Position numbers and translations under genes: made by a program. Positions 5,937-31,087 of a DNA stretch of 32,000 nt are shown in pieces (the first letter of the stretch is position 1; every line of letters starts with the position of its first letter). The stretch is taken from assembly GCA_943789275.1 (NCBI GenBank), contig CALSTM010000001.1, forward strand, positions 598,585 through 630,584, read 5' to 3'. The DNA comes from Candidatus Poseidoniaceae archaeon. GTDB taxonomy: Archaea > Thermoplasmatota > Poseidoniia > Poseidoniales > Poseidoniaceae. Below the pieces are notes generated by a model. That model saw only the letters and a program-made list of their open reading frames with translations. It had not been told where the DNA came from and did no database searches.

Positions 5937-6093
5937 TATGTCCTCCTGTTCTTCATCGGTAAAAATACTTGTCACAACTTAAAACAAGAAGCCCCTTTCG
6001 TTCAGAGGATTTCCCACCTGCTGCGCTTTGGTATTGAACAAGCGAACAGAAAACTGGAGGTTTACCTTTTTCCAATTCAATGCCCGCCTTTTT

Positions 6094-6111
6094 CCTAATT
6101 ATTTTATTAGG
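6094..6111 (+). promoter_or_regulatory. AT-rich palindrome CCTAAT-TATTTT-ATTAGG, a candidate archaeal TATA/BRE region for the gene starting at 6133
   Basis: It is centred about 30 nt upstream of the ATG at 6133. That spacing fits a leaderless or short-leader archaeal transcript. Confidence 0.35.
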
Positions 6112-6132
6112 TGTGGAATTCTTGGTTCTCTC

Positions 6133-6927: not shown

Positions 6928-6945
6928 CGCTTGGCCGATAGAAAT

Positions 6946-7212
6946 ATGCAATGGGCTTTTATTCGATTTAATCTCGAATTTGGAACTCCGCATGTTCTAT
7001 GCAGCGAGTCACTTTTGCCGACAATGAGCCCTGATGGAAAATGGATTTGGAACGGTTCTGAATGGATCCCTGCACCTCCATCACACGATGTCGCTCCAGC
7101 GCAGGCCATCGGAAAAGAGATGATTCAAGTACAACCTACCCAGTTAGTTCAGCCTCAAACGATGATGCAACAACCATCAATTCAGCAACCAGTTATCCAT
7201 CCTCAACAATGA
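6946..7212 (+). CDS. Small Q/P-rich hypothetical protein with a W-rich DGKWIWNGSEWIP motif (alternative start ATG 7024)
   Basis: The ORF is short and only weakly supported. The W-x-W-N-G-x-x-W-x-P motif resembles DUF2510/WW-like modules. Confidence 0.3.
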   Translation: MQWAFIRFNLEFGTPHVLCSESLLPTMSPDGKWIWNGSEWIPAPPSHDVAPAQAIGKEMIQVQPTQLVQPQTMMQQPSIQQPVIHPQQ

Positions 7213-7249
7213 GTTTTGATTCATGGACCTTCGAGTCATACGTTTTGGC

Positions 7250-9850
7250 TTAATCGGATGAACATTTCTTGCTAAAAGGTTCCATCGAAGGTCGAAAAGA
7301 CTGTTTTTGATACGAAAAGAACTTTGCAGCAAACACCAGAGAAGCGGTGGATAACCACATGCCGGGCCACGGCAAAGCACCACCAGTGTCCTCCTTGCCC
7401 GTTGAGTTGGGTGAACAGTTCTGTTCACACGGTTCCGGATCGACCGTTTCGTTCAACTCAGAATCAGAGGTGTTGCCAGATTCGTTGCCAGCAGCCGAAA
7501 GGTTACTCGCATCTGATGAGTTGGTGCCGTTAGCAGATGAATGGCCATCGTGAGATCCAGTCCCTTGTGAACCATTCTCCGTGCCGTTGACAGACGTTTC
7601 GTTTTCCATTTGAACTTCACAACCCTGTTCATCAACACTGGCTCCGGAGGGAGTACCGGGACAATCGTCCTCAAGGTCATTCACATTGTCGTTGTCTCCA
7701 TCCCGTTGACGAGATGAACAGCCGTTGATGTCCACAGCTTCGTTTGACCTCGTGAGTGAACACCAATCATCGCCGTCAAGCACACCATCGCCATCGGTGT
7801 CGGCATCGGAAATCAAACAGCCCGTGTCGTCAACGGCGACGTTGGGCAGTGTCCCCGGGCATTCATCCACCGTGTCTGGCGTACCGTCTTCGTCCGAATC
7901 GCTCCCCATGCGCTGCAACACACCTGGAAAGGCCGTACCAAACACGACGCTGCCTGATGCGTCAAAGGTGGAGGTTGAAAACACCGAACCTCCTATGCAG
8001 CGTTCCACGGTGGTTCCTGTTTGTGCGTTCACAAGTGTACCGCCGCAATCGGCATGCAGCAGGTATACGCCGTCAGCAGAAGCCCCGAGCACGCGTTGAA
8101 CGCCAGGGTGGGTCAAATTCAGCGCCCAATCCAAGGTGTCGTAACCTTTGGTAACGTAACTCTGGTCCCACCAATCGCCCTCTGCACTTGAAATCCACAA
8201 CATGGATCCATCGGGTGAGAATTGAACATACGCTTCAGCATCAAAACCAGTCACGGTGGTTTCTTTGGACCACGTGCTTGTCGACCATACATGCACTTGA
8301 CCTTCGCCACCTTGGACGCTGGTCGAACCTTCGCCAACGGCCAGCAGGCCGCCGTCGGGAGAGAATTCAATGGATTGGGGCCATGAAACACCGGAGAGGG
8401 AGGTGATTTCGGTCCAATCCGAGGTTCGCCAAATCGTAATGGCAGATGAGCGAAGGTTCGCCGCTGCTAACATTTGACCGTCGGGGGACAGATCGAGAAG
8501 GTCGGGGGCAAGGTCTGTTGAACCAGTGGACAGATTGATCGAGTTGGTCCCGTAGGTGGTGTTCCATCCATGAATCGAGCCATTCGTCGTGAGGGCGTAA
8601 ACGGTGCTTCCCTCGGGGCTGAACAGCACCGAGCCGACCTCGCTATCGGCTTGAAGTACGTGCTGGATTTCAACCGATGCACCGTTCCAAAGCACCACGC
8701 GCCCCCCTTCATCTCCTGTGGCCACAAGGTTTCCATCGTTGGATGTTGCAATTGCCCGTACTGTCCGGTCGTGAATCTGGGGTTCAACCAACAGACCACC
8801 CGTGGAGGCATCGATGTACCGAAGGAGGGCTGAACCTGTTTCTCCACCGACCATCATGGAGTTTCTGTCTGGGCTCAAGTCCACAACGCGAAGTTGTGTT
8901 TGACCGTTGCTGAAGAGCGTCTGAGTTTCTTGTAGCGTGTCCGTCGTTCGAATTCCGAGTTGGCCACCATAGGCCACCGCCAGCTGGTTGTCGTCGATGA
9001 ATGTCACATCGTGAATGGAGTTGTACCGAACATCATCACTCGCACTCAAACTCCAATTTTCTGTGTTCCAAAGCCGCAGGTCGCTGTTAAAATCTCCACT
9101 TGCGGCCATGGTGCCGTCCGGTGAGAACCCGAGAGCAGTCACCTGACTGGTGTGGTGTTCAAGCAAGTGGGTTCGGGTCCAATCGCTGGTGCTCCAAACG
9201 CCGATTGACCCGTTCGTATGGCCGACCATCAAATCATCACCGTTTGGTGAAAGAGCCAAGCTGTAAGGAGAGCCGTTGGGCAGAGGATGTTCCGCTAAGG
9301 TGGTCCATTCAGAGGTTGAAAGCACCGTGATTGTTGGCGAAGCCTGAGCGTTCGTGCCCGTGACGATAAGTTCACTTGAATCGGGTGAAAAAGCGATGGA
9401 ACGTGCGCTCAAACCGGCTCCCGGTTCGCGTACGCCCCAATCGTTCGTGTCCCAAACCCACAAGCCGCCCTTTTCGGAGGTGACAGCCAACATCGTGCTG
9501 TCTGGAGAGAACGTGATGTCCCAGATGCTCCAACACACCCCACAGTCAAAACTTGTCACCACTTCCCATGTTTGGAGATCCCATACGAGCAAACGCTCAT
9601 CCTCCCCTCCAGACGCCAGCCACCGGCCGTCTGCCGAATGGGACAAGGCCGTGACATCGTCAAAATGCCCCCCGGCTTCGTCCTCGAGGGCCCACGACTG
9701 AGGAGTAACGTCTCGTGCTTGAGTGGCGTTCGCTGTAACGAGGACAGATGTCAGAGGCAGCAGCAACAAGGCGCCAAAAAGCCACACGCTGACCATCTGT
9801 CTGTATGGGAGCTTTGGATCCGTGGCGTCCAAGGCATGTTGAAAGAGCAT
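7250..9850 (-). CDS. Secreted WD40/beta-propeller repeat protein with C-terminal TSP3-like repeats, an N/S/T-rich sequon-dense linker and a C-terminal TM anchor
   Basis: Signal-like MVSVWLFGALLLLPLTSVLVTANA (alternative start 9796). Classic WD40 units such as VTALSHSADGRWLASGGEDERLLVWD recur. DADTDGDGVLDGDDWC and DGDNDNVNDLEDDCPGT loops are present. The linker carries NETS, NGTE, NGSQ, NGTN, NSSD, NLSA, NESG, NTSD and NETV. The tail is LPWPGMWLSTASLVFAAKFF. Confidence 0.9.
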   Translation of the reverse strand: MLFQHALDATDPKLPYRQMVSVWLFGALLLLPLTSVLVTANATQARDVTPQSWALEDEAGGHFDDVTALSHSADGRWLASGGEDERLLVWDLQTWEVVTSFDCGVCWSIWDITFSPDSTMLAVTSEKGGLWVWDTNDWGVREPGAGLSARSIAFSPDSSELIVTGTNAQASPTITVLSTSEWTTLAEHPLPNGSPYSLALSPNGDDLMVGHTNGSIGVWSTSDWTRTHLLEHHTSQVTALGFSPDGTMAASGDFNSDLRLWNTENWSLSASDDVRYNSIHDVTFIDDNQLAVAYGGQLGIRTTDTLQETQTLFSNGQTQLRVVDLSPDRNSMMVGGETGSALLRYIDASTGGLLVEPQIHDRTVRAIATSNDGNLVATGDEGGRVVLWNGASVEIQHVLQADSEVGSVLFSPEGSTVYALTTNGSIHGWNTTYGTNSINLSTGSTDLAPDLLDLSPDGQMLAAANLRSSAITIWRTSDWTEITSLSGVSWPQSIEFSPDGGLLAVGEGSTSVQGGEGQVHVWSTSTWSKETTVTGFDAEAYVQFSPDGSMLWISSAEGDWWDQSYVTKGYDTLDWALNLTHPGVQRVLGASADGVYLLHADCGGTLVNAQTGTTVERCIGGSVFSTSTFDASGSVVFGTAFPGVLQRMGSDSDEDGTPDTVDECPGTLPNVAVDDTGCLISDADTDGDGVLDGDDWCSLTRSNEAVDINGCSSRQRDGDNDNVNDLEDDCPGTPSGASVDEQGCEVQMENETSVNGTENGSQGTGSHDGHSSANGTNSSDASNLSAAGNESGNTSDSELNETVDPEPCEQNCSPNSTGKEDTGGALPWPGMWLSTASLVFAAKFFSYQKQSFRPSMEPFSKKCSSD

Positions 9851-9936
9851 GTTTCATCGTTAAAGAAACCGCACTTGATGTTTTCGGGAATCATGCAACT
9901 CCGTTCGTGACAAATCCAGTGGCTTCCGTCCTCCAC

Positions 9937-10033
9937 CTCGTACCGGGAAACTCAATGGTTCCGTCCGTACAATCGTACGTAAGATCGGAGTGCTCGTACC
10001 GGGAATCTCGTAAGTTCCGTCCGGACAATCGTA
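9937..10033. repeat. Two tandem units (period 56 nt) that begin with a copy of the tRNA-Glu 3' end
   Basis: Unit 9937: CTCGTACCGGGAAACTCAATGGTTCCGTCCGTACAATCGTA. Unit 9988: GAGTGCTCGTACCGGGAATCTCGTAAGTTCCGTCCGGACAATCGTA. The 17 nt at 9988-10004 are identical to 15659-15675 (trailer plus tRNA-Glu 3' end). Confidence 0.8.
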
Positions 10034-10195
10034 GAAATTTCGAGCCTTTCAACGAAGCTTGTGTTGGACGAAAACCATCAAGAAATATTTGGTTTTGAAT
10101 AAGAATATCCTGCTGACAAAAAATCTCTCTACGATACCACCCCCGCTGGAGAAAAGCCTCAAAGACCGTAATTCGTATTGAAACGAAAGAATCGC

Positions 10196-10663
10196 TCAGG
10201 AATGATATCGCTTTCCGAGCCAATGGCATACTCGCTCTAGAAGTTGAACATCCTCTGTTGAGAAGGCTGCAAGTTCATCCGAATCGACATCGAGAACAGC
10301 CACGACGTCTCCAGATAAATTCTTGATTGGAACAACAATTTCACTGTTGGTGGTTGAACTGCAAGCGATATGTTCTGGTCGTTCGTGAACATTGGGTACG
10401 TCCTGAGTTTCTCCAATTCGTGCAGCTGCACCACAAATCCCCTTTTCGAAAGGAATGAAAAGACAACCATGCCCGCCTTGATATGGCCCAATCTTGAGCA
10501 TATTTGGTGAAGTTGTTCGATAAAAACCCGTCCAGTGGAAGTGATCAAACGCATTGTGAAGTTCACAAGCAACGGTTGCCATAGCCGAAATCCAATCATC
10601 TTCATCATCAAGAATAGATGTCGTTCTTGCGAAGACTTCGTCATGGTCCATAAGAACAATCAA
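10196..10663 (-). CDS. msrC: GAF-domain free methionine-(R)-sulfoxide reductase (fRMsr, YebR/MsrC-like)
   Basis: WTGFY...GPYQGGHGCLFIPFEKGICGAAA...HIACSSTTNSEIVVPI...VLDVDS matches the fRMsr signature, including the three conserved Cys positions. Confidence 0.9.
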   Translation of the reverse strand: MIVLMDHDEVFARTTSILDDEDDWISAMATVACELHNAFDHFHWTGFYRTTSPNMLKIGPYQGGHGCLFIPFEKGICGAAARIGETQDVPNVHERPEHIACSSTTNSEIVVPIKNLSGDVVAVLDVDSDELAAFSTEDVQLLERVCHWLGKRYHS

Positions 10664-10889
10664 GATATTGCTGTATTCAAATGTTCCGAGGACATGTAAT
10701 ATTCAGAACTGTGGTCAAGCACCTTCCGACTATCCTGATGAATTCCCTAATTTTTAATAGATTGTAAAATAACTTTCATCTCATAACCCTAGATACAGCA
10801 ATGGCGGTGCGAATAAGCATTGAAAATTCGAAAAATGGCTCAAATGTTTTCTGCATCAAACGTATCACAACATAATGACGTCAAATGAA

Positions 10890-10932
10890 TGCTCGTACCG
10901 GGAATCACGCAAGTTCCGCACGGACAATTCTA
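10890..10932. repeat. Third copy of the 43-nt repeat unit that begins with the tRNA-Glu 3' end
   Basis: TGCTCGTACCGGGAATCACGCAAGTTCCGCACGGACAATTCTA. About 38 of 44 positions match the unit at 9991 by eye. The first 14 nt are identical to the tRNA-Glu 3' end (15662-15675). Confidence 0.75.
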
Positions 10933-11113
10933 AGTCCTTACGTACAACTCATCGTACCGGAAAAACCACATCAGATGGACGTCAAAACTAAGGGTTCGAA
11001 CGCTTGTGAGTTGAAATCCATTTGGTCCGGAAGTTAATCTCCCAACAATGGCAAGCCAGTGTATTCAGCAGAATTGTGGCCTGGGTGAGAAATGGACCTT
11101 TAGGAAAATGATT

Positions 11114-12412
11114 TCAAAAGAGGCCATACATCCACAATTCGTCTCCGTTGGTTCCGTCGTCGGCTCGGAAAAAGAGTGTGTTGCCGATGGCTGTGAAATA
11201 TAAGGGAGAACTGCTGCCGCTTCCGCTGTTGATATCCTTAACCATCACCGTGCCTGAGGCTGTTCCGTCGCTCTTCCACAATTCTCTTCCGTTGGTTCCG
11301 TCGTCGGCTTTGAAAAAGAGGGTGGAGCCAATGACTGTGAGTAGGGAGGGATAACTTAGTCCGCTGCCATTTCCGCTGTTAATATCCTTGACCATCACCG
11401 TGCCTGAGGCTGTTCCGTCGCTCTTCCACAATTCTCTTCCGTTGGTTCCGTCGTCGGCTGAGAAAAAGAGGGTGGTGCCAACGGCTGAGATTTCGGTGGG
11501 ATCACTGCCGTTACTTCCGCTGTAGATGTCCTTGACCATCACCGTGCCAGAGGCTGTTCCATCGCTCTTCCACAATTCGAATCCGTTGGTTGCGTCGAAG
11601 GCTTGGAAATAGAGAGTGTTGCCAACGGCTGTGAAGTAGATGGGAGAACTGCTACCACTTCCGCTGTTGATGTCCTTGACCATTACAGTGCCATTGGCTG
11701 TTCCATCGCTCTTCCACAATTCGCTTCCGTTGGTTCCGTCGTCGGCTCGGAAATAGAGGGTGTTACCAACAGTTGTGAAGCCGCCGGGAGAACTGCCGCC
11801 ACTCCCGCTGTTGATGTCCTTGACCATCACCGTGCCTGAGGCTGTTCCATCGCTCTTCCACAATTCGGTTCCGTTGGTTCCGTCGGTGGCTTGGAAATAG
11901 AGGGTGTTACCAACGGCTGTGAGGTAGGAGGGAGAACTGCCGCCACTTCCGCTGTTGATGTCTTTGACTATGACCGTGCCTGTGGCTGTTCCATCGCTCT
12001 TCCACAATTCGAATCCGTTGGTTGTGTCGAAGGCTTGGAAATAGAGGGTGTTGCCAGCAGCTGTGAAGCCGTTGGGAAAACTGCCGCCACTTCCGCTGTA
12101 GATGTCCTTGACCATCACCGTGCCTAAGGCTGTTCCATCGCTCTTCCACAATTCTCTTCCGTTGGTTCCGTCGGTGGCTTGGAAATAGAGGGTGTTGCCA
12201 AAGGCTCCGAGATAGGAGGTAGAACTGCCCCAAAATCCGCTGCGAATGTCCTTAACCATCACCGTGCCTGAGGCTGTTCCATCGCTCTTCCACAATTCGT
12301 ATCCGTTGGTTCCGTCGTTGGCTACGAAAAAGAGGGTGTTGCCAACGGCTGTGAACCAGACAGGAGAACTGCTGCTACTTCCGCTGATGATGTCCTTGAC
12401 CATTATGGCTCT
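11114..12412 (-). repeat. Nine tandem 144-nt coding repeats (ELWxxDGT units)
   Basis: Highly similar nucleotide units. They produce mirror ORFs on the plus strand at 11148-11354, 11603-11839 and 11891-12127. Confidence 0.9.
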
Positions 12413-13663
12413 CGCACAAGTAATGTATGAATAATCAATTTCATCGGCGTTCAGCTGTCCGTCTGCAGCAGTTCCACTTCCATCGCCATTATCCAAACCA
12501 CTGTTCATTTGATTTGCAGCACCAAGGCAATATGCCGAGTAACTAATCGTGACTAGTTCAAACAAGGTGGCCGCACTGTATGTTGAGATAAGCGATGCAA
12601 TTGTTGAATTTGCACCACTCCAACCAGTTTGTAAAGTTGCAATAGTAGAATTTGCTGAATTCCAGCCCGAGATGAGAGTTGAAATCGTGCCATTTGCATC
12701 ACTCCATCCGTTCGTGAGCGATGATATCGTTTGGTTCGCACCGTTCCACCCTGTGGTGAGAGATGCAATCGTTTGATTTGCCGCAGCAAGATCACTTTGC
12801 AGTGAACTGATGGTTTGGTTGGCATTACCCCAACCAGTGCTCATCGAGGAAATGGTCTGGTTTGCATTCCCCCATCCTGTTGAAAGTCCTGAAATGGTCT
12901 GATTTGCTGTATTCCAACCTTGTTGAAGGCTGTAAATGGTGGCGTTTGCTCCCGTCAATTGGCTTGTAAGCGAAGTGACTGTTTGGTTGGTCGACGACCA
13001 TCCAGATTGGAGCAAAGCAATGGTTGAGTTGGCTGCAGACAAATCAGATTGTAAGGAGGCGATGGTCGAGTTTGCACTGTTCCATCCAGTACCGAGGTCA
13101 GTGATGGTTGAATTTGCTCCGCTCCATCCTGTCAGAAGAGTTTCAATTGTGGCGTTTGCATTGGCCCAATTTGATTCGAGAAGAGCAATTTGAGCATTGG
13201 CTTCGGACAAATCAGAGAAGGCTGCGGATAATTGAGTTTGTAAAGAAGTGACAGTGGACATGTTTTCGTTGATCGAGGCATTGAGTGCGGAGAGTTCGCT
13301 TTGAAGTTCTGCAACATCTTGTTCAGTGGAATTTTGTTCTCCTTGTGTACTTGCAAGTTGAGTTTCCAAACTTGCCTTTTCGGATTCCAAACTGGCAATG
13401 TCCTGGTTGAGGGTAGCAAGACTTACGCTGAGATTCTCGATGGCCCGCTGGAGAAGCCCAACATTGGATTGAGAATCAGCATAATCCGATTCAAGTTGGG
13501 AAATGTTGCTGAGCAGATCATTGATGGTGACGTTGTTAGCATCAATTTGTTCGGTGTACGGCGTGATGTCGACGGATTCTGAAGTCTCGTCTCCACCAAT
13601 ACAACCAGCAAGGGTTGCGGTGAACATCAAGAAGGCAAGGAACAGAGGAGTGCTGTTGCGCAT
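11114..13663 (-). CDS. Lipobox-anchored surface protein: coiled-coil region, fourteen 14-aa GWxxANxTIxxL repeats, a Ca-binding-like loop and nine ELWKSDGT beta-propeller repeats
   Basis: The N-terminus MRNSTPLFLAFLMFTATLAGC carries a lipobox LAGC. Nine units of 48 aa follow the pattern VMVKDINSGSGGSSP..T.VGNTLYFQA.DGTNG.ELWKSDGTASGT. The protein ends DELWMYGLF. Confidence 0.95.
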   Translation of the reverse strand: MRNSTPLFLAFLMFTATLAGCIGGDETSESVDITPYTEQIDANNVTINDLLSNISQLESDYADSQSNVGLLQRAIENLSVSLATLNQDIASLESEKASLETQLASTQGEQNSTEQDVAELQSELSALNASINENMSTVTSLQTQLSAAFSDLSEANAQIALLESNWANANATIETLLTGWSGANSTITDLGTGWNSANSTIASLQSDLSAANSTIALLQSGWSSTNQTVTSLTSQLTGANATIYSLQQGWNTANQTISGLSTGWGNANQTISSMSTGWGNANQTISSLQSDLAAANQTIASLTTGWNGANQTISSLTNGWSDANGTISTLISGWNSANSTIATLQTGWSGANSTIASLISTYSAATLFELVTISYSAYCLGAANQMNSGLDNGDGSGTAADGQLNADEIDYSYITCARAIMVKDIISGSSSSSPVWFTAVGNTLFFVANDGTNGYELWKSDGTASGTVMVKDIRSGFWGSSTSYLGAFGNTLYFQATDGTNGRELWKSDGTALGTVMVKDIYSGSGGSFPNGFTAAGNTLYFQAFDTTNGFELWKSDGTATGTVIVKDINSGSGGSSPSYLTAVGNTLYFQATDGTNGTELWKSDGTASGTVMVKDINSGSGGSSPGGFTTVGNTLYFRADDGTNGSELWKSDGTANGTVMVKDINSGSGSSSPIYFTAVGNTLYFQAFDATNGFELWKSDGTASGTVMVKDIYSGSNGSDPTEISAVGTTLFFSADDGTNGRELWKSDGTASGTVMVKDINSGNGSGLSYPSLLTVIGSTLFFKADDGTNGRELWKSDGTASGTVMVKDINSGSGSSSPLYFTAIGNTLFFRADDGTNGDELWMYGLF
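12584..13177 (-). repeat. About fourteen tandem 42-nt coding repeats (14-aa unit GW-x-x-AN-x-T-I-x-x-L-x-x), each containing an N-x-T sequon
   Basis: Protein residues about 163-360: SNWANANATIETLL TGWSGANSTITDLG TGWNSANSTIASLQ SDLSAANSTIALLQ SGWSSTNQTVTSLT and so on. Confidence 0.85.
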
Positions 13664-13735
13664 GAGCAGCGCTCAAGCATCTTTCACTTCTAGTTTGGCT
13701 GGATTCTTGTGCGGCGAAACCCCATGAATCACTGT

Positions 13736-13753
13736 GAGTGCTCGTACCGGGAT
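13736..13753. repeat. att-like direct repeat: 18 nt identical to the tRNA-Glu 3' end plus 3 nt of trailer
   Basis: GAGTGCTCGTACCGGGAT at 13736-13753 equals 15659-15676 in the same orientation. The flanks diverge immediately on both sides. Confidence 0.8.
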
Positions 13754-13894
13754 ACTATCTGCAAATACCATGGTGTTTTTCCCGAAATTATTAGCAATCA
13801 GCAGTTTGATGTAATACGACCATCTAACATGTATTGCAGTACGGTGCAGTGAGACTTAAATCTTACAAGAGCATCACCCATATTGGAGATAGAC

Positions 13895-14413
13895 ATGAAA
13901 GACGAATCTGAAGATAACACTTTATCCATACTTGAAAGGTTGGAGGAATTAGCTCTATGGCAGCCCAAAGATTTGGGTTTATCATATGTGAAATCAGGTG
14001 AAAAAACGGTCAAACTAATCACCCAAGAAAACAATCAAACTTCTAAGCATTACAGAGAATCAATGAAAGAGAGAATTGAAAATGTGGGATGGACAGTGGA
14101 CGAAAGTGAAGTAAAGATAAAGGAAATTCCAAAATATTCACCCAGTGAACAGTATATAATTGACCAACATGTTTCAATCCAAAACTTGAATTGTAACTGT
14201 GAAAGACCTATCTCTTCTTTCCCATTGAGCAAAGGAGTCTGGAGGCATACTGATGAAAAATTTCAAACAGTTTACGACGATGACGGTGAAAATACAACGA
14301 TATTATGGTCAGTGAATGTAACATGCCCTAGTTGCGGTATGGAAATCCCCCTTTCTCCGCTGCAATTTGGACTTATGTTAACAGTCAAATATTCAGAAGT
14401 GGGAAAAATTTGA
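13895..14413 (+). CDS. Hypothetical protein with a four-Cys (CxC ... CPxCG) putative zinc-binding C-terminal half
   Basis: The ATG at 13895 is preceded by GGAG 7 nt upstream. Cys pairs are NCNCERP and TCPSCG. I recognise no family. Confidence 0.6.
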   Translation: MKDESEDNTLSILERLEELALWQPKDLGLSYVKSGEKTVKLITQENNQTSKHYRESMKERIENVGWTVDESEVKIKEIPKYSPSEQYIIDQHVSIQNLNCNCERPISSFPLSKGVWRHTDEKFQTVYDDDGENTTILWSVNVTCPSCGMEIPLSPLQFGLMLTVKYSEVGKI

Positions 14414-14492
14414 ATTAAAGATCTATCTAGAAAATTCCGTGAATCAATTAAATATTATAGAGAATTTAAAAACAAATCTGTGGTGATTAACT

Positions 14493-15119
14493 TTGACTAA
14501 TCAGAAATTAGAAACAATGAATTTATTCGAGAAGTGGTATGAATTTACCGAACAAGGCACATTTATAGCTTGGTGCTTGGAAAGATGTGAACTTACTAAG
14601 CAGCAAGTATATTGTGAATTACTTGAATTAGCTTATGACATTCATTATCATTATCAAGAAGAGGTGTGGGAAGAATTAGAAAATTCAGAGAATATTTACC
14701 ATTTTTTCAACAAGCATGAATACTTAGATTGTATTTTTAGACCTTTTAATGATGAGATGCATACTCGATATTTTTTACGAGTTGTAGATGAATGTGAACC
14801 TGAGCATTTTCTCAAAGAAGAATTCGATTTTTTTAACCCCGACTTCTGTTCGGATATTATTTCATATTTTATTGACGTCGAGATGAATGGAATGATTTAC
14901 AAAGTAAAAAGGACATTTTTTTCAGATGATATAGACGGTACAATAAATTGGGAGTTGGAGGGTTTTGAGTCTACGCTCTCTTTTAGTTACTGGGAACAAA
15001 TCAAAGAAGAAAACGGCTATGTGAACATTGGCTATTTCCCGAATCCATATCCGTTTGAAATTCCGAGTAATCCCTTTAATGATTTAAAAATTCACAGAAA
15101 AAATAAAATTATTCCTTAG
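14493..15119 (+). CDS. Hypothetical, strongly acidic and aromatic-rich protein (orphan)
   Basis: The TTG at 14493 is preceded by GGTGA. An alternative ATG lies at 14517. It is rich in E/D/F/Y/W (EEVWEELENSEN, DECEPEHFLKEEFDFFNPDF). I recognise no domain. Confidence 0.6.
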   Translation: MTNQKLETMNLFEKWYEFTEQGTFIAWCLERCELTKQQVYCELLELAYDIHYHYQEEVWEELENSENIYHFFNKHEYLDCIFRPFNDEMHTRYFLRVVDECEPEHFLKEEFDFFNPDFCSDIISYFIDVEMNGMIYKVKRTFFSDDIDGTINWELEGFESTLSFSYWEQIKEENGYVNIGYFPNPYPFEIPSNPFNDLKIHRKNKIIP

Positions 15120-15498
15120 TGCGCTGCTTCTTGTATTCCTTGACATCTTTGCTCAACTGTTCAAGACCCCATATAAGATGCGAGAAGCCAGGATTACCTG
15201 CCCACTTCGGGAAGGCACCAGCCATACCTTGCCATTCGCTTCCATCAGTGACGGTGTCAGCGTCCAAATTACTGTACACAGCACGCATAATGCACCTCGT
15301 TATCGCTTTTGAAAATGCTTCTTGGTTTGCCAGCAGTGCTTCCCAAGATGGACTTGAAGGTGGTCCGCTGTGTACACGTACAATGAGGTCTATTGAATTG
15401 AGAAAATCATAAGCTGTACCAAAAGATCCAGTCAATACAAATTCATTCATCCAATTTATCGGGCTTTCATTACTGTTTTCTTTATTTTCATCGGTCAT
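15109..15498 (-). CDS. Hypothetical protein (orphan), convergent with the previous gene and overlapping it by 11 nt
   Basis: The ATG at 15498 is preceded by GAGGA 7 nt upstream. Length is 129 aa. I recognise no motif. Confidence 0.55.
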   Translation of the reverse strand: MTDENKENSNESPINWMNEFVLTGSFGTAYDFLNSIDLIVRVHSGPPSSPSWEALLANQEAFSKAITRCIMRAVYSNLDADTVTDGSEWQGMAGAFPKWAGNPGFSHLIWGLEQLSKDVKEYKKQRTKE

Positions 15499-15661
15499 TT
15501 CGATTCCTCTTTTTCTTTTTCAGAAGTGTTTACTTCTTTATTAAATTAAGAAATCAAGAGTATATGAATCAATTCTAAAAACTGGTAATAATGAAAAAAG
15601 TAGTTCCTTTTTGAATATTCAAAGAGTGAACGGTTAAAACTATAGAAGCGTTAACTGAGAG

Positions 15662-15734
15662 TGCTCGTACCGGGATTTGAACCCGGGTCGAAGGAATGAG
15701 AGTCCTTCATGATGGGCCACTACACTATACGAGC
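15662..15734 (-). tRNA. tRNA-Glu (anticodon CUC)
   Basis: Reverse complement: GCTCGTA TA GTGT AGTGGCCCA TCAT G AAGGA CTCTCAT TCCTT C-GACC CGGG TTCAAAT CCCGG TACGAGC A. The acceptor stem has 7 bp and the T-loop is GTTCAAATC. The anticodon loop is C-U-CUC-A-U. CCA is not encoded. Confidence 0.9.
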
Positions 15735-15819
15735 GTGGATAGTTTGGCCACCGTCACCCCGTATTTAGCCATCACGCTTTAGCAAGTTGTCAGGGGAAAG
15801 GGGGAAGGACAGTTTTCCA

Positions 15820-15885
15820 TTCACTTTCAGTTTTTGTTGAAAGTGAAAAAGGGAGTGCTGCGAGACTTTCACTGATTGACTTTCA
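15820..15885. promoter_or_regulatory. Cluster of four ACTTTCA motifs (one 10-bp-arm inverted repeat plus two direct GACTTTCA copies 14 nt apart) between tRNA-Glu and the small operon at 15936
   Basis: TTCACTTTCA (15820-15829) is followed by an 8-nt spacer and TGAAAGTGAA (15838-15847). GACTTTCA occurs at 15864-15871 and 15878-15885. Confidence 0.4.
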
Positions 15886-15935
15886 AAACACGGGTGTTTC
15901 CTCGCTTGATATACTGGTGCCGTACAGTTTGCTTC

Positions 15936-16193
15936 ATGGACAACAACCTTGACCCACTTGGAAACCTAAGACTCGGTGATATGAAATCATCAACTGAACA
16001 CTCGACGACGGCCTTATGGGCAGAGAAATCGACAACACTCTATGCTCACCCCAGCGGCAAGCTCCCATCTCGGTTTGCCGCTGTTGGGTGGCAACCTTGG
16101 CACCGACCAGGCGGATCAGGTGCATCTCTGGTGAGCACGACCGTTGCAGGACTAACCCGACGCAGCCAAATCGCCATTCGAGGTGAGGCTTAA
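15936..16193 (+). CDS. Possible small hypothetical protein (85 aa) whose stop overlaps the next start (TAATG)
   Basis: The evidence is only the ORF and the overlapping stop/start. A comparable ORF exists on the opposite strand, so coding status is uncertain. Confidence 0.3.
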   Translation: MDNNLDPLGNLRLGDMKSSTEHSTTALWAEKSTTLYAHPSGKLPSRFAAVGWQPWHRPGGSGASLVSTTVAGLTRRSQIAIRGEA

Positions 16194-16432
16194 TGAGTCG
16201 AACACAACGATTGCGCCAAGAAATTTCGACCTATCTTGCGAGTGTTGGCGAAGCGAACACAACGGATATTCTCGACCACGTCAATCAACGGTTCCGCTGG
16301 GGAGCGACCATGAATCAACTCGGGAATGTTTTGGCCAGAGATCGAAGATTTGTCAAAGTCGGTTTCGATGAAGGAACCGATATTGGCGGATTCCGCATGC
16401 GTGTCTGTGTCTGGTCGATTGCCAGCGCTTAG
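16193..16432 (+). CDS. Small (79 aa) winged-helix-like protein
   Basis: The ATG at 16193 is preceded by GGTGAGG. RQEISTYLASVGEANTTDILDHVNQRF..GATMNQLGNVLARDRRFVKVG looks like a helix-turn-helix plus wing. This is an inference. Confidence 0.6.
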   Translation: MSRTQRLRQEISTYLASVGEANTTDILDHVNQRFRWGATMNQLGNVLARDRRFVKVGFDEGTDIGGFRMRVCVWSIASA

Positions 16433-16470
16433 GACAAAGGAATCAAGACCTTTGCTCCTTAGGGAGTAGC

Positions 16471-17346
16471 ATGTCGGCAGATGTTCGGGCGTTCATTGAG
16501 TTGATGCGTCCAAAAAACATGGTGCTTGCTGCAATCACTGTACCACTTGGTGCTCTTTTTGGACTCAATGCATCGCTTACCGAACAACAGATGACTGCTG
16601 TCGTGATTCAAATCCTTTCAGTCCTTGCCTTCATGGGCGCTGGAAACGCCATGAACGATATCAAAGATGCTGCAATTGATGCACAAGCTCACCCGAACCG
16701 ACCACTCCCATCGCAGCGAATCAGTCTTGCGGCTGCAAAGAAGTTCGTTATCGTCTTGTGGCTAATCAGTTTCAGTTTCATGGTGGCTGGCGTCTATCTC
16801 CTCATGGAGAATGATGCGACTTGGTGGCCACTTGTCGCTATTTACGTCACCGCAGTAGCACTCATGCTCACCTATGATTTGGGACCAGAAACCAAAACCA
16901 AGGGACTCATCGGGAATGTTTCCATTTCGCTTATGGTTGCAGCAGTAATCTTGTACGGAGCAGCCACAGTTGATTCAATCACCCGACTTTCCTTCCTCGT
17001 TGCTGGCGTGGTGTTCTTCACGAACTTAGCACGAGAAATTGTCAAAGATTGCCAAGACATGCTCGCAGATGAAGGAGAACGGTATACCCTACCAATGAAG
17101 ATCGGTTTAGAGCGTGCTCGTATGTTGGCTTACGTGTTCATCATGGCGGGACTCGTGTGCTTGTACATCCCATACTGGAAGGGACCTTTCGAGTTCGGCC
17201 GGCTGGTCATGCAGACTCCTGCCATTCTGGTTCTCATTACTTTGAACGGCCCACTGTTTCAAGGTGATGATGTCATGGTATCAAGTCGTATCCGAGTGGC
17301 AATGCTGCTCGGACTCATGGGGTTCATACTTACGATGTTCGTATAA
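16471..17346 (+). CDS. UbiA-family prenyltransferase, probably digeranylgeranylglyceryl phosphate (DGGGP) synthase
   Basis: Polytopic membrane protein. The first Asp-rich motif is NAMNDIKDAAIDAQAHPNRPLPS and the second is KDCQDMLADEGERYTLP. Size (291 aa) is typical. Confidence 0.8.
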   Translation: MSADVRAFIELMRPKNMVLAAITVPLGALFGLNASLTEQQMTAVVIQILSVLAFMGAGNAMNDIKDAAIDAQAHPNRPLPSQRISLAAAKKFVIVLWLISFSFMVAGVYLLMENDATWWPLVAIYVTAVALMLTYDLGPETKTKGLIGNVSISLMVAAVILYGAATVDSITRLSFLVAGVVFFTNLAREIVKDCQDMLADEGERYTLPMKIGLERARMLAYVFIMAGLVCLYIPYWKGPFEFGRLVMQTPAILVLITLNGPLFQGDDVMVSSRIRVAMLLGLMGFILTMFV

Positions 17347-18315
17347 TCATTCGATGCTCATGAACTCGCCCATGGCATCCCATGCGCCATCGTTGATGAA
17401 GTAAGCAAGTAATGACATTTGAGCCCACATGCGGTTTTCGGCTTGGTCAAAAGCAATCGAGTGCTTGTGGTCCATAACCCAGTCGGTAACTTCGTCGCCC
17501 CGGTGTGCAGGCAAGCAATGCATGAACTTCCATGAATCATCCATGTGCGAAACCAGTTCTTCATTCACTTGAAAACCTTCAAACGACTTGATTTTATCTT
17601 TCATGTGTTCTTCGCCCATGGAAATAAACACGTCCGTGTAAACGACATGTGCATCCGAAACTGCTTCAACAGGATCGTTGGTCTCTACCACTTGACTGCC
17701 GTTCTTTTCAGCGAGTGCTTGTGTTCGCATGACCACTTCTTCATCCGGTTCATATCCTTTTGGAATTGCGTAATGGATGTCGATACCGAGCATAGCGCAA
17801 GCCAACATCAAGTCATGTAGGACATTGTTTCCGTCACCAACCCAAGCGACTTTGAGGTGTTCCAAGTCATCGAAATTTTCCAGTACAGTCATCAGGTCTG
17901 CTGCTGCCTGGCAAGGATGATGTTTGTCAGAAAGAGCGTTGATGACTGGAACATCAGCAAATTTAGCAAGTTCAACGACATCTGCGTGGGCAAAGCATCG
18001 ATAGGTCATTCCACCTAAGAAACGCGAAAGAACTTGAGAGGTATCGCCAACCGTTTCCGACTTACCAAGTTGAATGTCGTTCTTCAAGAGCGTCAAAGGA
18101 TAGCCCCCGAGACGGTTGATACCAACTTCAAAGGAAACTCGTGTGCGTGTTGATGGCTTCTCGTAAATCGAACCAATGGCCAAAGTGTCGAGCGGCATGA
18201 AGTTCTGAGCGACTTCGTCGCCTTGCTTCCAAAGTCGTTTGAATTCAATCGCCCATTTCAAAATCTTCTTGAAGTCTTCTTCGACATCGTCTATTGCAAG
18301 CAGGTGTTGTGCCAT
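17347..18315 (-). CDS. argF: Ornithine carbamoyltransferase
   Basis: Contains STRTR (carbamoyl-phosphate site), HPCQ, FISMG and HCLPAHRGDEV, the OTCase-type HCLP motif. Confidence 0.9.
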   Translation of the reverse strand: MAQHLLAIDDVEEDFKKILKWAIEFKRLWKQGDEVAQNFMPLDTLAIGSIYEKPSTRTRVSFEVGINRLGGYPLTLLKNDIQLGKSETVGDTSQVLSRFLGGMTYRCFAHADVVELAKFADVPVINALSDKHHPCQAAADLMTVLENFDDLEHLKVAWVGDGNNVLHDLMLACAMLGIDIHYAIPKGYEPDEEVVMRTQALAEKNGSQVVETNDPVEAVSDAHVVYTDVFISMGEEHMKDKIKSFEGFQVNEELVSHMDDSWKFMHCLPAHRGDEVTDWVMDHKHSIAFDQAENRMWAQMSLLAYFINDGAWDAMGEFMSIE

Positions 18316-18367
18316 GAGCCTTCCATTGAAAGGAGGCTTCTAAGTGTTATGAGTTGAAAAATTGCAA

Positions 18368-19186
18368 TCAATTCTTTTCGTGTTCAATGTCACTGGCGAA
18401 TCCGTCGCGTGCATCACTCATTCCACCGAACAATGCTTGAGCAAACGTCAAGATGTCTGCAAGGCCTTCTTCAAGTTCGGAAGAAAGAGGCGTGAGGCCG
18501 GGTGCCTGAGCGAATTCTTGCATCATTCGAAGTTGATTAATCGCGAACTCTGTTCGCTGTCCACCTGCTTCATCGTACAGTGCCATTTCCAAAATCTCAA
18601 GTCGTTCAGACCATTCAAGAATCTTCTCAAGTTCTTCCGGTTCGAGTAAGTCTGACTTTGAGAGGAAGTTCTTGGTCGGCAATCCAAGTCGGAATTCGAC
18701 AATGCTGGAGAGCAACATTTGCGAAACAAAACCTGACGGTGAGCGAGAAAGCATCGGGTCAAAGAGGTAAATAATGGCGGATTGTTCACGGCCAAGGACT
18801 TCGATGAGGTGATTGCTGGCTTCACGGAATGCAAACAATTCGACTTGTCCCGGAGTATCGACAATCATGACCTCACCGGTCAATGCATGGAGTTGAGCTG
18901 CGACATCGCCAGCCTGAGCGGCCAGTAAGTCTGCGGCTAAAATCTGAGCACCGTTCGGACCCAAATCATACTCTGCCATGACTTCTGTTAACGATATTAA
19001 ATCTCGAACGTCAAACTCAGCATCATAATGCACGCGTTCTGCTCCTGGATCGAGGTTGACAGCGATAGCATCGGTCTCTAAAAAGCGTGACCAGCGTTGG
19101 AATGAAGTTACCAACGAAGACTTTCCTGCACCTGCAGTTCCAACAACAAAAAGCACTGGGGGTGTGCCACTATCCATTCCGACCAT
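18368..19186 (-). CDS. GPN-loop GTPase
   Basis: Contains the P-loop GTAGAGKSS, the GPN motif YDLGPNGA and DTPGQVELF. The ATG at 19186 is preceded by GAGGA. The track ORF extends to 19234. Confidence 0.85.
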   Translation of the reverse strand: MVGMDSGTPPVLFVVGTAGAGKSSLVTSFQRWSRFLETDAIAVNLDPGAERVHYDAEFDVRDLISLTEVMAEYDLGPNGAQILAADLLAAQAGDVAAQLHALTGEVMIVDTPGQVELFAFREASNHLIEVLGREQSAIIYLFDPMLSRSPSGFVSQMLLSSIVEFRLGLPTKNFLSKSDLLEPEELEKILEWSERLEILEMALYDEAGGQRTEFAINQLRMMQEFAQAPGLTPLSSELEEGLADILTFAQALFGGMSDARDGFASDIEHEKN

Positions 19187-19310
19187 GTGTAATCCTCGAA
19201 ACCACCCTACATCAACATGATGGCACTGGCACACCTTTACCGACCAAACTGCGTTTTTTTTCTAAACTAAGGGGGCGAACGGTTATGTGCTCAATGAGTA
19301 TGGGGGTGTT

Positions 19311-19324
19311 GTTGCTTGAGCAAC
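19311..19324. promoter_or_regulatory. Perfect palindrome GTTGCT-TG-AGCAAC 20 nt upstream of the start of the large polyproline protein gene
   Basis: Read directly. It lies in the 157-nt divergent region shared with the GPN GTPase gene. Function is unknown. Confidence 0.25.
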
Positions 19325-19343
19325 CTATGCGGAGGAATTGAAT

Positions 19344-22300
19344 ATGAGCGAAGAAAAACCACCTATGCCACCCGGATTACCACCTATGCCTCCAATGCCT
19401 CCTGCTCCACCGGGTATGGACGCACCTCCTGCCCCTCCAATGGACGCTCCACCTGCTCCACCGGGTATGCCACCTATGCCTCCAATGCCAGAGATGGGCG
19501 CTCCGCCTGCTCCGCCTATGGACGCACCTCCTGCTCCGCCAGGTATGCCACCTATGCCTCCAATGCCAGAGATGGGTGCTCCGCCTGCTCCGCCAATGGA
19601 CGCACCTCCGGCTCCACCCGGCATGCCAGCAATGCCACCTATGCCAGAAATGAGCGCACCACCAATGCCGCCTATGCCTGAGATGGGTGCACCACCTGCA
19701 CCTCCAATGCCTGAAATGGATGCACCACCAATGGAAGCACCACCTGCACCTCCAATGCCTGAAATGGACGCTCCGCCAATGGACGCACCACCTGCTCCAC
19801 CAGGTATGCCACCTATGCCGCCAATGCCAGAGATGGATTCTGCACCTGCAGTTGATGCCTCCGCACTTCTTGGTGGCGCCCCTCCAGCACCTCCAATGCC
19901 TGAAATGGACGCTCCGCCAATGGACGCACCTCCAGCTCCACCAGGTATGCCACCTATGCCGCCTATGCCAGAGATGGATTCTGCACCTGCCGTTGATGCC
20001 TCAGCACTCCTTGGTGGCGCCCCTCCGGCACCTCCAATGCCAGAAATGGACGCTCCACCAATGGATGCACCACCTGCTCCTCCTGGTATGCCGCCAATGC
20101 CCCCTATGCCTGAAGCACCACCTGCAATGGATGGTGCTGCACTGCTCGGTGGCGCACCACCTGCACCCCCTGTGCCCGAAATGGAAACAGAACCTGCGCC
20201 TGATGCTGCCTCATTGCTTGGCGGTAGTGCAGCATTGCTTGGTTCACCTGTTGAAGAATCGACTGAAGAAGCAAAGGAGATTCCTGCTTTGCCGACCACA
20301 CTTGCTGCTGACCCAGTTCTTGGCACTCCGGACAATCTTGTCGGAGAACAAGCTGGTGCTGTCATTCGAAGCAGTGCCGAAGTTGATGAAGTCCTCGGCG
20401 ATAAACTCGAAGGTACCTTGCACGAGGTTGAAAAGTCGACATTGAACGCTGACGGTGAAATCGTCAAGCAGACGGTCAAAGGTTTGCTTACAGTGAACAA
20501 TCCATCTGCTGAAGACCGAATCTACGACATCGATGTTTTGCTTGATCACGCTGATTCAACCGATATCGGCGGAGACCACGTTTCCGTTGATGAATTGGAA
20601 GCAGGAACGAACTACAGTATGAAATACAAGGTCTCAGGAAAGCGAATGCTGGTTCTGCGAGAGCGTCTCGATACCAATCCAGCACGTTCCCAAGAACACT
20701 CGATGTCTGTCTCTTCCGGTGATGAAGGTGGCCCTGTTGCCATGGAACTTGAAGTTGAAAACACGGCGCCTGTGGCGATCCAAGGCGTTACTGTCACACG
20801 ACCTCTTCCAGACGAACTCACGTTCGAAAACACTGGAGTCGCGACCGTTGAAGGAAACGAACTCACATGGAATGTTGGGGACATGGCTGCAGGAGAAAAG
20901 CAAGTTCTCAGTGTTGAAGGAACCATCGTCGTAACCGGTACCAAAGCCATCGACGCAGGTGCAGCATCTGCGACCTACACATCCGATTCGACGCTCTCAA
21001 ACTTGAATTTCCGTGAACTCGATGCATTCTGCCGAGGCTTCTCTTACATGCGTGTACGTGAAGACGAACGGCCAGACAATTGGCTTTGCCGAACCACATT
21101 TGAAAACCGTTCTTCGTTCGCAGTCGATTTGGTGAAACTCCAAGTCCGAATGAAGGGAAGCGAAGATTTGCTGTTCGACATTGGCGATGTTCGTCAAGAC
21201 GTCAAACCTCATGGTAAGTGGGAAAGCGACGAGCGCTCCGTCATGGCACTCTCAAAGCCTGATTTCACCACAAACCTCGCTTATACCATATTGCCTCGTG
21301 CCTCACGAAGTACCGAAGGTTCCATCTCGTTGCAATCAAAGAAGTTCGAAGTCGTCGAAGCAGACTTGTCAAAGTCGTATTCGACCACTGGACTTCGTTC
21401 GTTCCGAAAGCAAACCGTTCACGCTACATTAACCCTAACCAACAACGGTTCGGCTGACATTAACTTGATGCGCATCACCGACGATATTCCAGGACTGTTT
21501 GAAGCTCCTGATGCCTCGAAGATTTCGATTAAGGTGAATGGAAAGGATATCGATGCTGATCAAATTAAAGCAGAAATCAACAGCGGTATTACCCTCGAAA
21601 AGAACAACCGTTCACCTGATGGTGATGGTTTCACCTACACCATTACGGTCGGAGCACGCGGTCCAGTAGGCCTCAAACCTGGAAAGAACATGACCATCGA
21701 CTACGAATTGGTTGCACCCGGTCCAACTGAACACGAAGGCCTCACGGTAAGCGCACCTGCTCGAACTGAATTCAGCGCAGAACGGTACGGACCAGTTTGT
21801 ACCCGAGACGCAACTGAAGCACCTTCCGTCAACATCATCCACAACCGAAGAAAGTTCGGTGCTGGTAAGATGACACAGAAAATCGGCGGAAAGGGACGGC
21901 ATGAAGTCTTGATTATGTTCAACAACGAAGGCGACACTGGACTGAAAGACGTCACACTCAAGGACGTCATTCCAGAAAATTTCGAGATTAAAGACTGGCT
22001 TATCCGTGGTAACGGAGACAAGCGAGATGACTGTGAAATGACCAGTGAAGAAGGCGAAGATGGAACACATCTCGCTTGGAACATCCCGTTGGTGAACAAG
22101 GGCGAAGAAATTATGATTTCCTTCGAAATCACTGGCCCAGGAGCCATTGACGGAGAACTCGGAAACATCTTCCACGGCGTTCACTTCGGCGACGAAGACG
22201 AATCCATCGACGTCCCTGCACCTGAGAAGGAAGAAGCTGAGGAAACGACCGAAGAATCAACTGAGGAAGCAATGGAAGAACCAGCCGCTGAAGAAGCGTC

Positions 22301-26643: not shown

Positions 26644-26711
26644 TCGTAATACTGTACTCCTTAAACGGTTTTGGAGATTTAAATTCAACGAAGGTGATTG
26701 GGTTTGGATTC

Positions 26712-26854: not shown

Positions 26855-26914
26855 ATTTGAACTCGGGGCCTCTACCATGCCAAGGTAGCGATCTTCCAAC
26901 TGATCTACACGCCC
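26842..26914 (-). tRNA. tRNA-Ala (anticodon GGC)
   Basis: Reverse complement: GGGCGTG TA GATC AGTTGGAA GATC G CTACC TTGGCAT GGTAG AGGCC CCGAG TTCAAAT CTCGG CACGTCC A. The cloverleaf is perfect. The G3:U70 pair is the Ala identity element. Confidence 0.92.
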
Positions 26915-29824: not shown

Positions 29825-29852
29825 TATTAACCCTCGATGGGACAGTCAACAC

Positions 29853-31070: not shown

Positions 31071-31087
31071 GCGTATAAGGTGATGAG

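Follow-up and report, generated by a model that had tools for sequence, protein, structure and literature searches.

Tycheposons of Prochlorococcus are cargo elements that sit at the 3' ends of tRNA genes, where they stack, leave partial tRNAs through the island and vary at the level of strains (Hackl et al., bioRxiv 10.1101/2020.12.28.424599; Cell 2023). Their cargo is adaptive or defensive, and they are defined by an integrase together with replication modules (bioRxiv 10.1101/2020.12.28.424599). Here we describe a three-gene islet at the 3' end of a tRNA-Glu(CUC) gene in a 32-kb stretch of a Candidatus (Ca.) Poseidoniaceae genome (contig CALSTM010000001.1), the whole of which we call the window. 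The islet is very probably a site-specifically inserted mobile cassette, and, taking the statement as a whole, we favor the reading that it is a non-autonomous cassette moved by integrases that its sibling elements encode, either in trans or by accretion. The locus resembles tycheposon islands in its integration at a tRNA 3' end, its stacking and its partial tRNAs, and also in having a streamlined marine plankter as host. It differs in that this host is an archaeon, that a single tRNA (Glu-CUC) was studied, and that 96% of the units lack an integrase although their arm motif is sharply conserved. The islet has no recombinase of any kind, and no primase, helicase or polymerase Pfam domain was found in the islet or in the conserved module of its siblings.

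Cryptic integrated elements of Thaumarchaeota that carry non-partitioning (pNOB8-type) integrases also target tRNA 3' ends with short direct repeats, form arrays by re-use of the site, carry restriction-modification cargo, and keep their integrase intact on integration (PMC6563490). The Poseidoniaceae locus is alike in all these features, but each thaumarchaeal element by definition has an integrase, unlike the islet and most of its siblings. The integrase-bearing siblings share an element attachment site (attP) flanked by two palindromes, and we know of no description of that layout for Thaumarchaeota or pNOB8-type elements. Among the integrative and conjugative (ICE) and integrative and mobilizable (IME) elements of Streptococcus, cis-mobilizable elements (CIMEs) are reportedly flanked by the attachment (att) sites of a related element, lack recombination genes, stand next to it in tandem at a conserved site, and are proposed to travel with it as a composite. 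In sequence anatomy the islet is similar, as its core and left arm have the same form as those of an autonomous element (L138) and it has no recombination or transfer genes, though its right arm differs. CIMEs, however, are bacterial and linked to conjugation, whereas here we see no transfer apparatus and find single-gene cassettes of about 100 types at one tRNA.

Integron cassettes are mostly one gene with its own recombination site, encode no recombinase, and are stacked at a platform with the newest next to the attachment site. The units at tRNA-Glu share the small, mostly one-gene format, the private recombination site and the placement of the newest unit nearest the attachment site, but their platform is a tRNA gene and their open reading frames (ORFs) lie in both orientations with their own upstream regions. 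We reject the integron cassette as an identity for the islet: there is no IntI gene, attI site or Pc promoter beside the array, whose neighbors are tRNA-Glu, DUF3860, UbiA and OTCase. Rfam searches of 9000-17000 at E values up to 0.1, with general models of which none is specific to attC, returned only the tRNA. Within Ca. Poseidoniales themselves, clade P of the Charybdis elements is reported to integrate next to tRNA genes by means of an integrase and to carry methyltransferases, and Charybdis elements are uniform circles of ~4.6 kb with a structural module that are abundant in IMG/VR (bioRxiv 10.1101/2025.08.03.668216). On present evidence we also reject membership in Charybdis, which its description sets apart, as the integrase, the 172-aa and 270-aa proteins, ORF C and both att motifs of our system have no IMG/VR match. 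No tRNA-Glu cassette array in Poseidoniales turned up in a literature search of one library, which is no proof of novelty.

Insertion and array at tRNA-Glu(CUC)

The islet is bounded by an exact 18-nt direct repeat, GAGTGCTCGTACCGGGAT, that occurs twice in the same orientation (13736-13753 and 15659-15676). The number of such matches expected by chance is 0.00, and none of 100 dinucleotide-preserving shuffles of the window gave one; when the comparison is widened, identity reaches 22 of 23 nt (13731-13753 against 15654-15676). The tRNA-Glu(CUC) gene lies on the minus strand at 15661-15734 according to ARAGORN and at 15662-15734 according to Rfam (RF00005, 63.4 bits), so the repeat consists of 3 nt of trailer and the last 15 nt of the tRNA. 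Within the repeat lies a 12-nt recombination core, CTCGTACCGGGA, with a distal copy at 13741-13752 and a proximal copy at 15664-15675. The DNA between the cores (13753-15663, 1,911 bp) has a GC content of 0.352, against 0.489 for the window outside the array. At its left end the islet carries a 22-nt motif, TACTATCTGCAAATACCATGGT, that is common to autonomous sibling elements. The islet thus shows the usual marks of a tRNA island, namely a tRNA-fragment direct repeat, an intact regenerated tRNA, an empty site in relatives and deviant composition, except for an integrase within the element: the ORF listing, Pfam, and a phmmer/HMM integrase search revealed no recombinase ORF or domain in it. The features of its ends are as follows.

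13736-13753, no strand: distal (attL-side) copy of the tRNA-Glu 3' end; exact repeat, with all strain junctions inside its core
13753-13775, plus strand: left-arm motif T2, TACTATCTGCAAATACCATGGTG; the near-palindrome TACCATGGTG within it spans 13766-13775, at a distance of 13 nt from the core
15637-15663, plus strand: right-end motif AAACTATAGAAGCGTTAACTGAGAGTG of the 'CTATAGAA-long' class, a consensus common to cassettes with unrelated cargo
15659-15676, no strand: proximal (attR-side) copy of the repeat, which is the functional 3' end of tRNA-Glu (repeat match, ARAGORN, Rfam)
15662-15734, minus strand: tRNA-Glu(CUC), the integration target (attB), intact (ARAGORN; Rfam RF00005)
16193-16432, plus strand: DUF3860 gene (Pfam PF12976, E = 2e-16), a conserved chromosomal anchor beside the tRNA and outside the element
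Predicted attP junction of the islet: ...GTTAACTGAGAGTG-CTCGTACCGGGA-TACTATCTGCAAATACCATGGTGTTTTT
Empty-site junction: ...ATCACTGTGAGTG-CTCGTACCGGGA-TTTGAACC

Near-identical populations were represented by ten contigs (L001-L010) retrieved with the exact sequence of the DUF3860 protein. Two of them, L001 and L007, align with 6001-13753 and 15654-20000 of the window at 99.8-99.9% identity. The two aligned blocks have just the 23-nt repeat in common, so that what these strains are missing is the islet's 1,923 bp and nothing else. This is a textbook empty site, with its junction inside the repeat. The islet (13741-15663, nearest the tRNA) is moreover one of four units in the window's array, each bounded by CTCGTACCGGGA. 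Further near-copies of the 18-mer stand in the same orientation at 9988-10005 (one mismatch) and 10887-10904 (two mismatches), and a copy of the core at 9937. The other units of the array are these.

9937-9992, no strand: outermost 'mini' unit of 56 nt, a core with a T1-type spacer and no gene; an identical unit occurs in another species (L088)
9993-10891, no strand: GAF cassette, with its core at 9993-10004 and a GAF gene at 10196-10663 on the minus strand (Pfam GAF, E = 1e-9)
10875-10884: right arm of the GAF cassette, ATGACGTCAA, 7 nt before the next core; a G-type arm, ATGACGTCAA-N7-core
10892-13740, no strand: cassette with an 849-aa repeat-rich surface protein, its core at 10892-10903 and its gene at 11114-13663 on the minus strand

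Comparison of the ten strain contigs shows that the interval from the WD40 gene (7250-9850) to the tRNA is modular, and that the GAF, 849-aa and islet units come and go independently. The GAF cassette is missing from L005, L006 and L010 and the 849-aa cassette from L004, L006 and L008; L004 and L008 hold the GAF unit only, L005 the 849-aa unit only, and L006 neither. The 849-aa cassette lies behind varying neighbors in L002, L005, L009 and L010. Other cassettes lie between the units in L002, L009 and L010 (a set of 102-, 463- and 224-aa proteins, or McrBC), and the cassettes of L003 are one for an alpha/beta-hydrolase and a HincII/Eco57I restriction-modification unit of 6.8 kb. At every strain junction, the DNA left of CTCGTACCGGGA goes with the left unit and the DNA right of it with the right unit, which places the point of exchange within the 12-nt core. 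A stretch of that length is typical of site-specific recombinases and offers little for homologous recombination to act on.

Two further observations concern these strains and units. The only cassette-free strain variant, L006, lacks 4 nt (GCTC) of the 3' acceptor strand of tRNA-Glu (L006 9455-9480), where ARAGORN finds no tRNA; this is either a scar of imprecise excision or an indel error of long reads. The protein of the 849-aa cassette is encoded by a gene with 144-nt and 42-nt tandem repeats, with units of the ELWKSDGT type.

An earlier note, made from the sequence alone, had read the locus as an AT-rich orphan islet without a recombinase, bounded by a repeat of trailer and tRNA-Glu 3' end in attL/attR geometry, and had taken it for either a remnant or cargo mobilized in trans. 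The repeat, the composition and the missing recombinase are borne out here, and the geometry gains support from siblings with integrases that use the same core and left arm at the same tRNA. The empty site that it anticipated exists in near-identical strains, and relatives do not all carry the three genes. What has to be given up is the picture of a single insertion, as the islet is the innermost cassette of a multi-cassette array.

Cassettes, arm motifs and sibling integrases

Arrays of this kind extend through the group. A scan of GTDB, at one genome per species and with the DUF3860 protein as query, gave 80 loci, all titled Ca. Poseidoniales, Poseidoniaceae or Poseidonia (Marine Group II), with the order tRNA-Glu/DUF3860/UbiA/OTCase conserved. 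Many of these species have multi-core arrays, and loci with enough upstream sequence often have 2-5 cores, always on the same strand. A metagenome scan with the core and the T2 motif yielded at least 120 contigs. Pooled, the Ca. Poseidoniaceae loci hold 103 distinct complete cassettes, each a unit between two cores, with medians of 2.1 kb, one ORF and a GC content of 0.41. An integrase is encoded by 4 of the 103. Recognizable cargo includes restriction-modification enzymes, McrBC, and large surface proteins with thrombospondin type 3 and pentapeptide repeats, as well as TPR proteins, hydrolases, a short-chain dehydrogenase and a permease. Gene-less 'empty' units of 41 nt occur in L034, L125 and L161.

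Several details of these contigs deserve mention in their own right. Tandem gene-less units of 39-41 nt, each a core and a T2 arm ending in TACCATGGTG, are found in L174 (~200-290) and L177 (~480-520), and resemble the product of repeated integration and collapse of empty att sites. In one cassette type the core recurs in inverted form (GGTCGGTGCGAGCAC / CGGTACGAGCAC), ~30 nt in from the right end (L220 ~4630-4668, L149 ~2560-2600, L034 and L167). Many contigs of metagenome-assembled genomes end within a few bases of a core, and contigs begin within ~15 nt of it in L021, L024, L028, L040, L041, L045, L069, L084, L085, L091, L094 and L096; Poseidoniaceae assemblies thus break at the core, and cassette cargo is probably missing from many bins.

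The left ends of the cassettes fall into two main classes, T1 (AATCTCGTAAGTTCCGTCCGGACAAT) and T2 (WACTATCTGCAWWTACCATGGTA). For motif statistics we used only loci that had not been chosen by a motif (the window, L001-L010 and L021-L100); their 35 distinct non-tRNA cores divide into 19 T2, 13 T1 and 3 others. Across the 19 T2 cassettes the arm carries 1.4-2.0 bits at most of the 22 positions after the core, with two degenerate positions at 0.6 and 1.3 bits; information then drops to 1.0 bit at position 23 and to 0.5 bits or less from position 24 onwards. The T2 arm with the TACCATGGTG variant, as found in the islet, is also the left arm of the autonomous, integrase-bearing element in L138.

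Integrases were found by phmmer with the E. coli XerD sequence, used only as a probe, and then with an HMM built from the matches. Six integrase genes are present among the retrieved loci, and Pfam confirmed PF00589 at E = 7e-19 and 1e-20. The genes are whole in the integrated state and lie at the tRNA-proximal end of elements of ~4.7-6.2 kb. This intactness shows that they are not partitioning integrases of the SSV type, and since no ORF crosses the islet's junctions either, a split SSV-type integrase is rejected for the islet as well. Conserved proteins of ~172 aa and ~270 aa accompany the integrases. Identity between lineages is 23-27%, for the 270-aa protein between the two main families and for the 172-aa protein with a third, L225-type lineage, whose integrases (L225-L227) are 45% identical. 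A database search with one integrase gave 69 clusters, nearly all on short contigs, and those integrase genes whose context is known adjoin tRNA-Glu (L221-L224).

The two main families share a geometry at their attachment sites. In P-family elements the left arm is T2, the right end is ...ATACCATGGTATTTAGTG followed by the core, and the reconstructed attP reads TACCATGGTA-N7-core-N13-TACCATGGTA, with a 10-bp palindrome on both sides. The G-family attP, TTGACGTCAA-N7-core-N13-TTGACGTCAA, has the same geometry with another palindrome. Each P element contains four perfect copies of TACCATGGTA, two of them 80-107 bp apart upstream of the 86/270-aa operon; we estimate that chance alone would give any one 10-mer ~0.01 times per 6 kb. 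We take the palindrome to be a putative operator of an element-encoded DNA-binding protein that would also mark the att arms. The right end of the islet, AAACTATAGAAGCGTTAACTGAGAGTG, belongs instead to a conserved class built around another palindrome, TTCTATAGAA, that many cassettes with unrelated cargo share. Such a CTATAGAA-type right end may be the arm of an uncaptured integrase family, for example the L225 type, the distal end of which the contigs do not reach. Pfam searches with 20 candidate ORFs beside the left arm of integrase-less cassettes returned TPR, GTPase, hydrolase, methylase and similar domains and no integrase, and IMG/VR scans gave no confirmed match for either att motif, ORF C of the islet, the integrase, the 270-aa protein or the 172-aa protein.

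Mobility, mechanism and alternatives

Cassettes at this tRNA cross species. Between L003 and L221 a cassette of 4,570 bp is 94.3% identical while the DUF3860-UbiA-OTCase flank is 71.7% identical; an integrase-less cassette for a 591-aa protein (1,898 bp) is 96.0% identical between L003 and L032, with a flank at 75.2%; a cassette of 968 bp shared by L002 and L112 is 91.3% identical, with a flank at 70.8%; and 500 bp of the window's GAF cassette match L221 at 92.6%, with a flank at 71.7%. With cassettes at 91-96% and flanks at about 70-75% identity, integrase-less units have moved between species and landed at the same tRNA. The islet trio itself occurs in two more contigs at 99.3-99.4% identity, in L147 behind the 849-aa cassette, as in the window, and in L020 behind a different, L220-type cassette.

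We propose that the islet arrived through a site-specific exchange inside the core CTCGTACCGGGA of the tRNA-Glu(CUC) 3' end. The core that it brought along would have restored the tRNA while displacing the original 3' end to 13736-13753, which would make the tRNA-proximal islet the newest unit of the array. The recombinase would have come from autonomous siblings at the same site, which pair a PF00589 tyrosine integrase with the ~172-aa and ~270-aa proteins and whose complete attP left arm the islet retains. Movement could have occurred in trans, or in cis by accretion, and we hold the latter more likely. By accretion, a cassette would excise together with an adjacent integrase element, using the left att site of the cassette and the right att site of the element; such excision needs only a left arm on the cassette, and the left arm is exactly the part that is conserved. 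Where no integrase element lies beside it, a cassette would be stranded and would be lost only by core-to-core recombination. In L150, L183 and L221, the unit immediately distal to an integrase element is a T2 cassette with no integrase. In L222 a single unit between intact cores is made up of a TPR cassette, a decayed internal core with a T2 arm (TGTGTACCGGGA + AACTATCTGCAAATACCATGGTG), and an integrase element.

Several findings weigh against a cassette moved by its siblings. The trio has been seen in only one species background (the window, L020 and L147), and no circular form or attP junction of the islet is present in any retrieved contig; contigs with cores at both ends are arrays with different neighbors. 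Presence and absence among strains could also come from deletion by recombination between cores together with homologous exchange between strains. The 32-kb window has no integrase, and in the census all 38 T2 cassettes whose right end is of the CTATAGAA type are without one. As the right end of the islet also lacks the TACCATGGTA palindrome found at the right end of autonomous elements, excision of the islet alone by a P-family integrase would be supposition. The metagenome sample (L101-L220) was selected by the left-arm motif, so T2 is over-represented in the census, and no search gave a positive sign of any function for the cargo. That the islet can still be mobilized by sibling integrases is accordingly a near-even question on which we lean slightly toward no.

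An alternative is a stranded remnant: the islet would be a once autonomous element that lost its integrase module by deletion, can no longer move, and varies among strains through loss at the direct repeat or homologous replacement. Decay of this sort is visible nearby: the integrase of L221 is truncated to 182 aa, L003 has no integrase but still encodes the 272-aa module protein, and in L119 and L121 all that is left of the 172-aa gene is its first part, next to the right arm. The retrieved contigs also contain no circular islet. The islet, however, has no trace of the integrase, 172-aa or 270-aa genes, and dozens of cassettes whose cargo is unrelated share its conserved right-end class, a pattern that would not arise from random deletion. 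Units like it, without an integrase, also travel (at 91-96% identity, between flanks at 70-75%), and we consider a remnant rather unlikely. The predominance of integrase-less units (96%) and the conserved motifs at both cassette ends would also suit an array serviced by a chromosomal recombinase, whether integron-like, XerA-like or the nearby type IB topoisomerase, whose gene (1461-2663) bounds the variable region on its far side in three species. Yet the conserved neighbors of the array are DUF3860, UbiA and OTCase, with no recombinase among them, and the left-arm motif is exactly that of the integrase-encoding elements, whose internal promoter region also contains the palindrome. With ORFs in both orientations and no attC-like structure or Rfam match, a platform run by the host seems very improbable. 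Finally, all the data are from metagenome assemblies, in which contigs often break at the core, and a chimera joined at a repeated tRNA fragment could imitate an insertion. We give this hardly any credence, as the same islet and junctions were assembled independently in the window, L020 and L147, and contigs of 0.6-1.0 Mb, drawn from ten samples, enclose the occupied as well as the empty arrangement.

Islet genes, surroundings and significance

The cargo of this non-autonomous cassette consists of three ORFs, which encode soluble, acidic proteins by computation; none of the three has a membrane-spanning hydrophobic segment. ORFs A and B are co-oriented, and B and C converge with an overlap of 11 nt.

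13895-14413, plus strand: ORF A, 172 aa (176 aa if a TTG start at 13883 is used); acidic, cytoplasmic, with four Cys
14493-15119, plus strand: ORF B, 208 aa, with a TTG start and no transmembrane segment
15109-15498, minus strand: ORF C, 129 aa, predicted helical; a module of its own, found again in other cassettes

A search of 1.84 billion representatives gave 24 relatives of ORF A, and the family has five invariant residues (C100, C102, C144, C147 and W138). Most relatives are 230-250 aa long, with a C-terminal extension that is missing from A. No member of the family has a Pfam or PDB match, and A has no NCBIfam family. ORF B is very acidic and rich in aromatic residues (isoelectric point 4.49, 41 D+E against 17 K+R, 19% aromatic). 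It found no relative but itself among 5.8 billion clusters, and is a true orphan. For all three proteins, nothing rose above threshold in Pfam, PHROGs, PADLOC or NCBIfam, and PDB sequence searches with single sequences and profiles gave no match. AlphaFold2 (AF2) models of ORF B (pLDDT 47.5, from a single sequence) and ORF C (pLDDT 50.6, from a 4-sequence alignment) were too low in confidence for a meaningful fold search.

ORF C has homologues at 84-95% identity in differing cassette contexts. One lies beside a dienelactone hydrolase gene at tRNA-Glu in another species (L011), in a region 88.6% identical between flanks that are 76-78% identical; others are in a cassette with TPR, 259-aa and 181-aa proteins (L158 and L166) and beside a WYL-like gene (L014). 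A 139-aa relative, 44% identical, is found in other small cassettes (L193 and L194). The DNA common to the islet and L166 comprises ORF C and ~75 nt upstream, and ends there. A look-up of the exact ORF C sequence returned no record. Against three homologues its ratio of nonsynonymous to synonymous substitution rates (dN/dS) is 0.06-0.18, which argues that C is a real gene under purifying selection.

The three genes are much as the earlier note had drawn them, with four cysteines in A, an acidic, aromatic-rich B and a convergent C, and no housekeeping homologues of the trio were found. Its label of orphans holds for B but not for A, with 24 relatives, or C, a recurrent cassette gene. Its suggestion of defense, DNA mimicry or immunity drew no support from any search and stays speculation. 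A conflict-type accessory function for the cargo would be a doubtful guess of our own, prompted by context: the proteins are soluble and acidic, and sister strains carry restriction-modification and McrBC genes in the same slots.

The surroundings of the array offer other signs of variability. A 237-bp segment between the WYL-like and WD40 genes (6988-7223) is missing in L005 and kept in the other strains, and overlaps a small glutamine/proline-rich ORF. The type IB topoisomerase gene (1461-2663) marks the far side of the variable region in the window, L011 and L100; in L011 it is only two genes away from tRNA-Glu, and L003 has no WD40 gene. This close spacing suggests that the window's 1,087-aa, WYL-like and WD40 genes may also be variable. 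On the other side of the tRNA, a repeat-rich, proline-rich protein of 1,144 aa with a CLIPPER domain (19338-22772) ranges from 1,064 to 1,144 aa across near-identical strains. The last 14 nt of tRNA-Ala(GGC) (26841-26914, minus strand) and ~40 nt of its trailer are duplicated 88 nt downstream (26711-26766 and 26797-26857), with ~30 nt between the copies. The duplication resembles the gene-less footprints at tRNA-Glu, and this second tRNA may thus serve as an attachment site. A second AT-rich stretch (29750-32000, GC 0.34-0.45) begins ~1.1 kb past tRNA-Arg(UCU) (28597-28672) and runs off the end of the window, in which no copy of the tRNA-Arg 3' end was found.

Taken alone, the islet is of a common sort, a small insertion at a tRNA that lacks an integrase, while the cassette system to which it belongs is unusually rich and sharply defined. 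Our boldest proposal, which we offer tentatively and would not yet lean on, is that Marine Group II archaea run an integron-like cassette economy at a tRNA gene. A hundred or more mostly one-gene, integrase-less cassettes, each with a recombination site of ~35 nt made up of the tRNA core and a 22-nt arm that ends in a 10-bp palindrome, would be shuttled among Poseidoniaceae by a few autonomous elements equipped with tyrosine integrases and a palindrome-binding partner; the islet would then be live, with A and B forming a new conflict module. Ca. Poseidoniales are among the most abundant archaea of the surface ocean, and to our knowledge none has been cultured. For such a group, the tRNA-Glu(CUC) gene beside DUF3860, UbiA and OTCase is a single recognizable hot spot in which strain variation in surface proteins, restriction-modification and McrBC is concentrated. 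The two integrase families, as candidate enzymes with a common two-palindrome attP, and their sites provide a testable mechanism for pangenome turnover parallel to that of tycheposon islands. For archaea still lacking a genetic system, the integrase and its att site of ~50 bp are also a candidate means of inserting DNA site-specifically.

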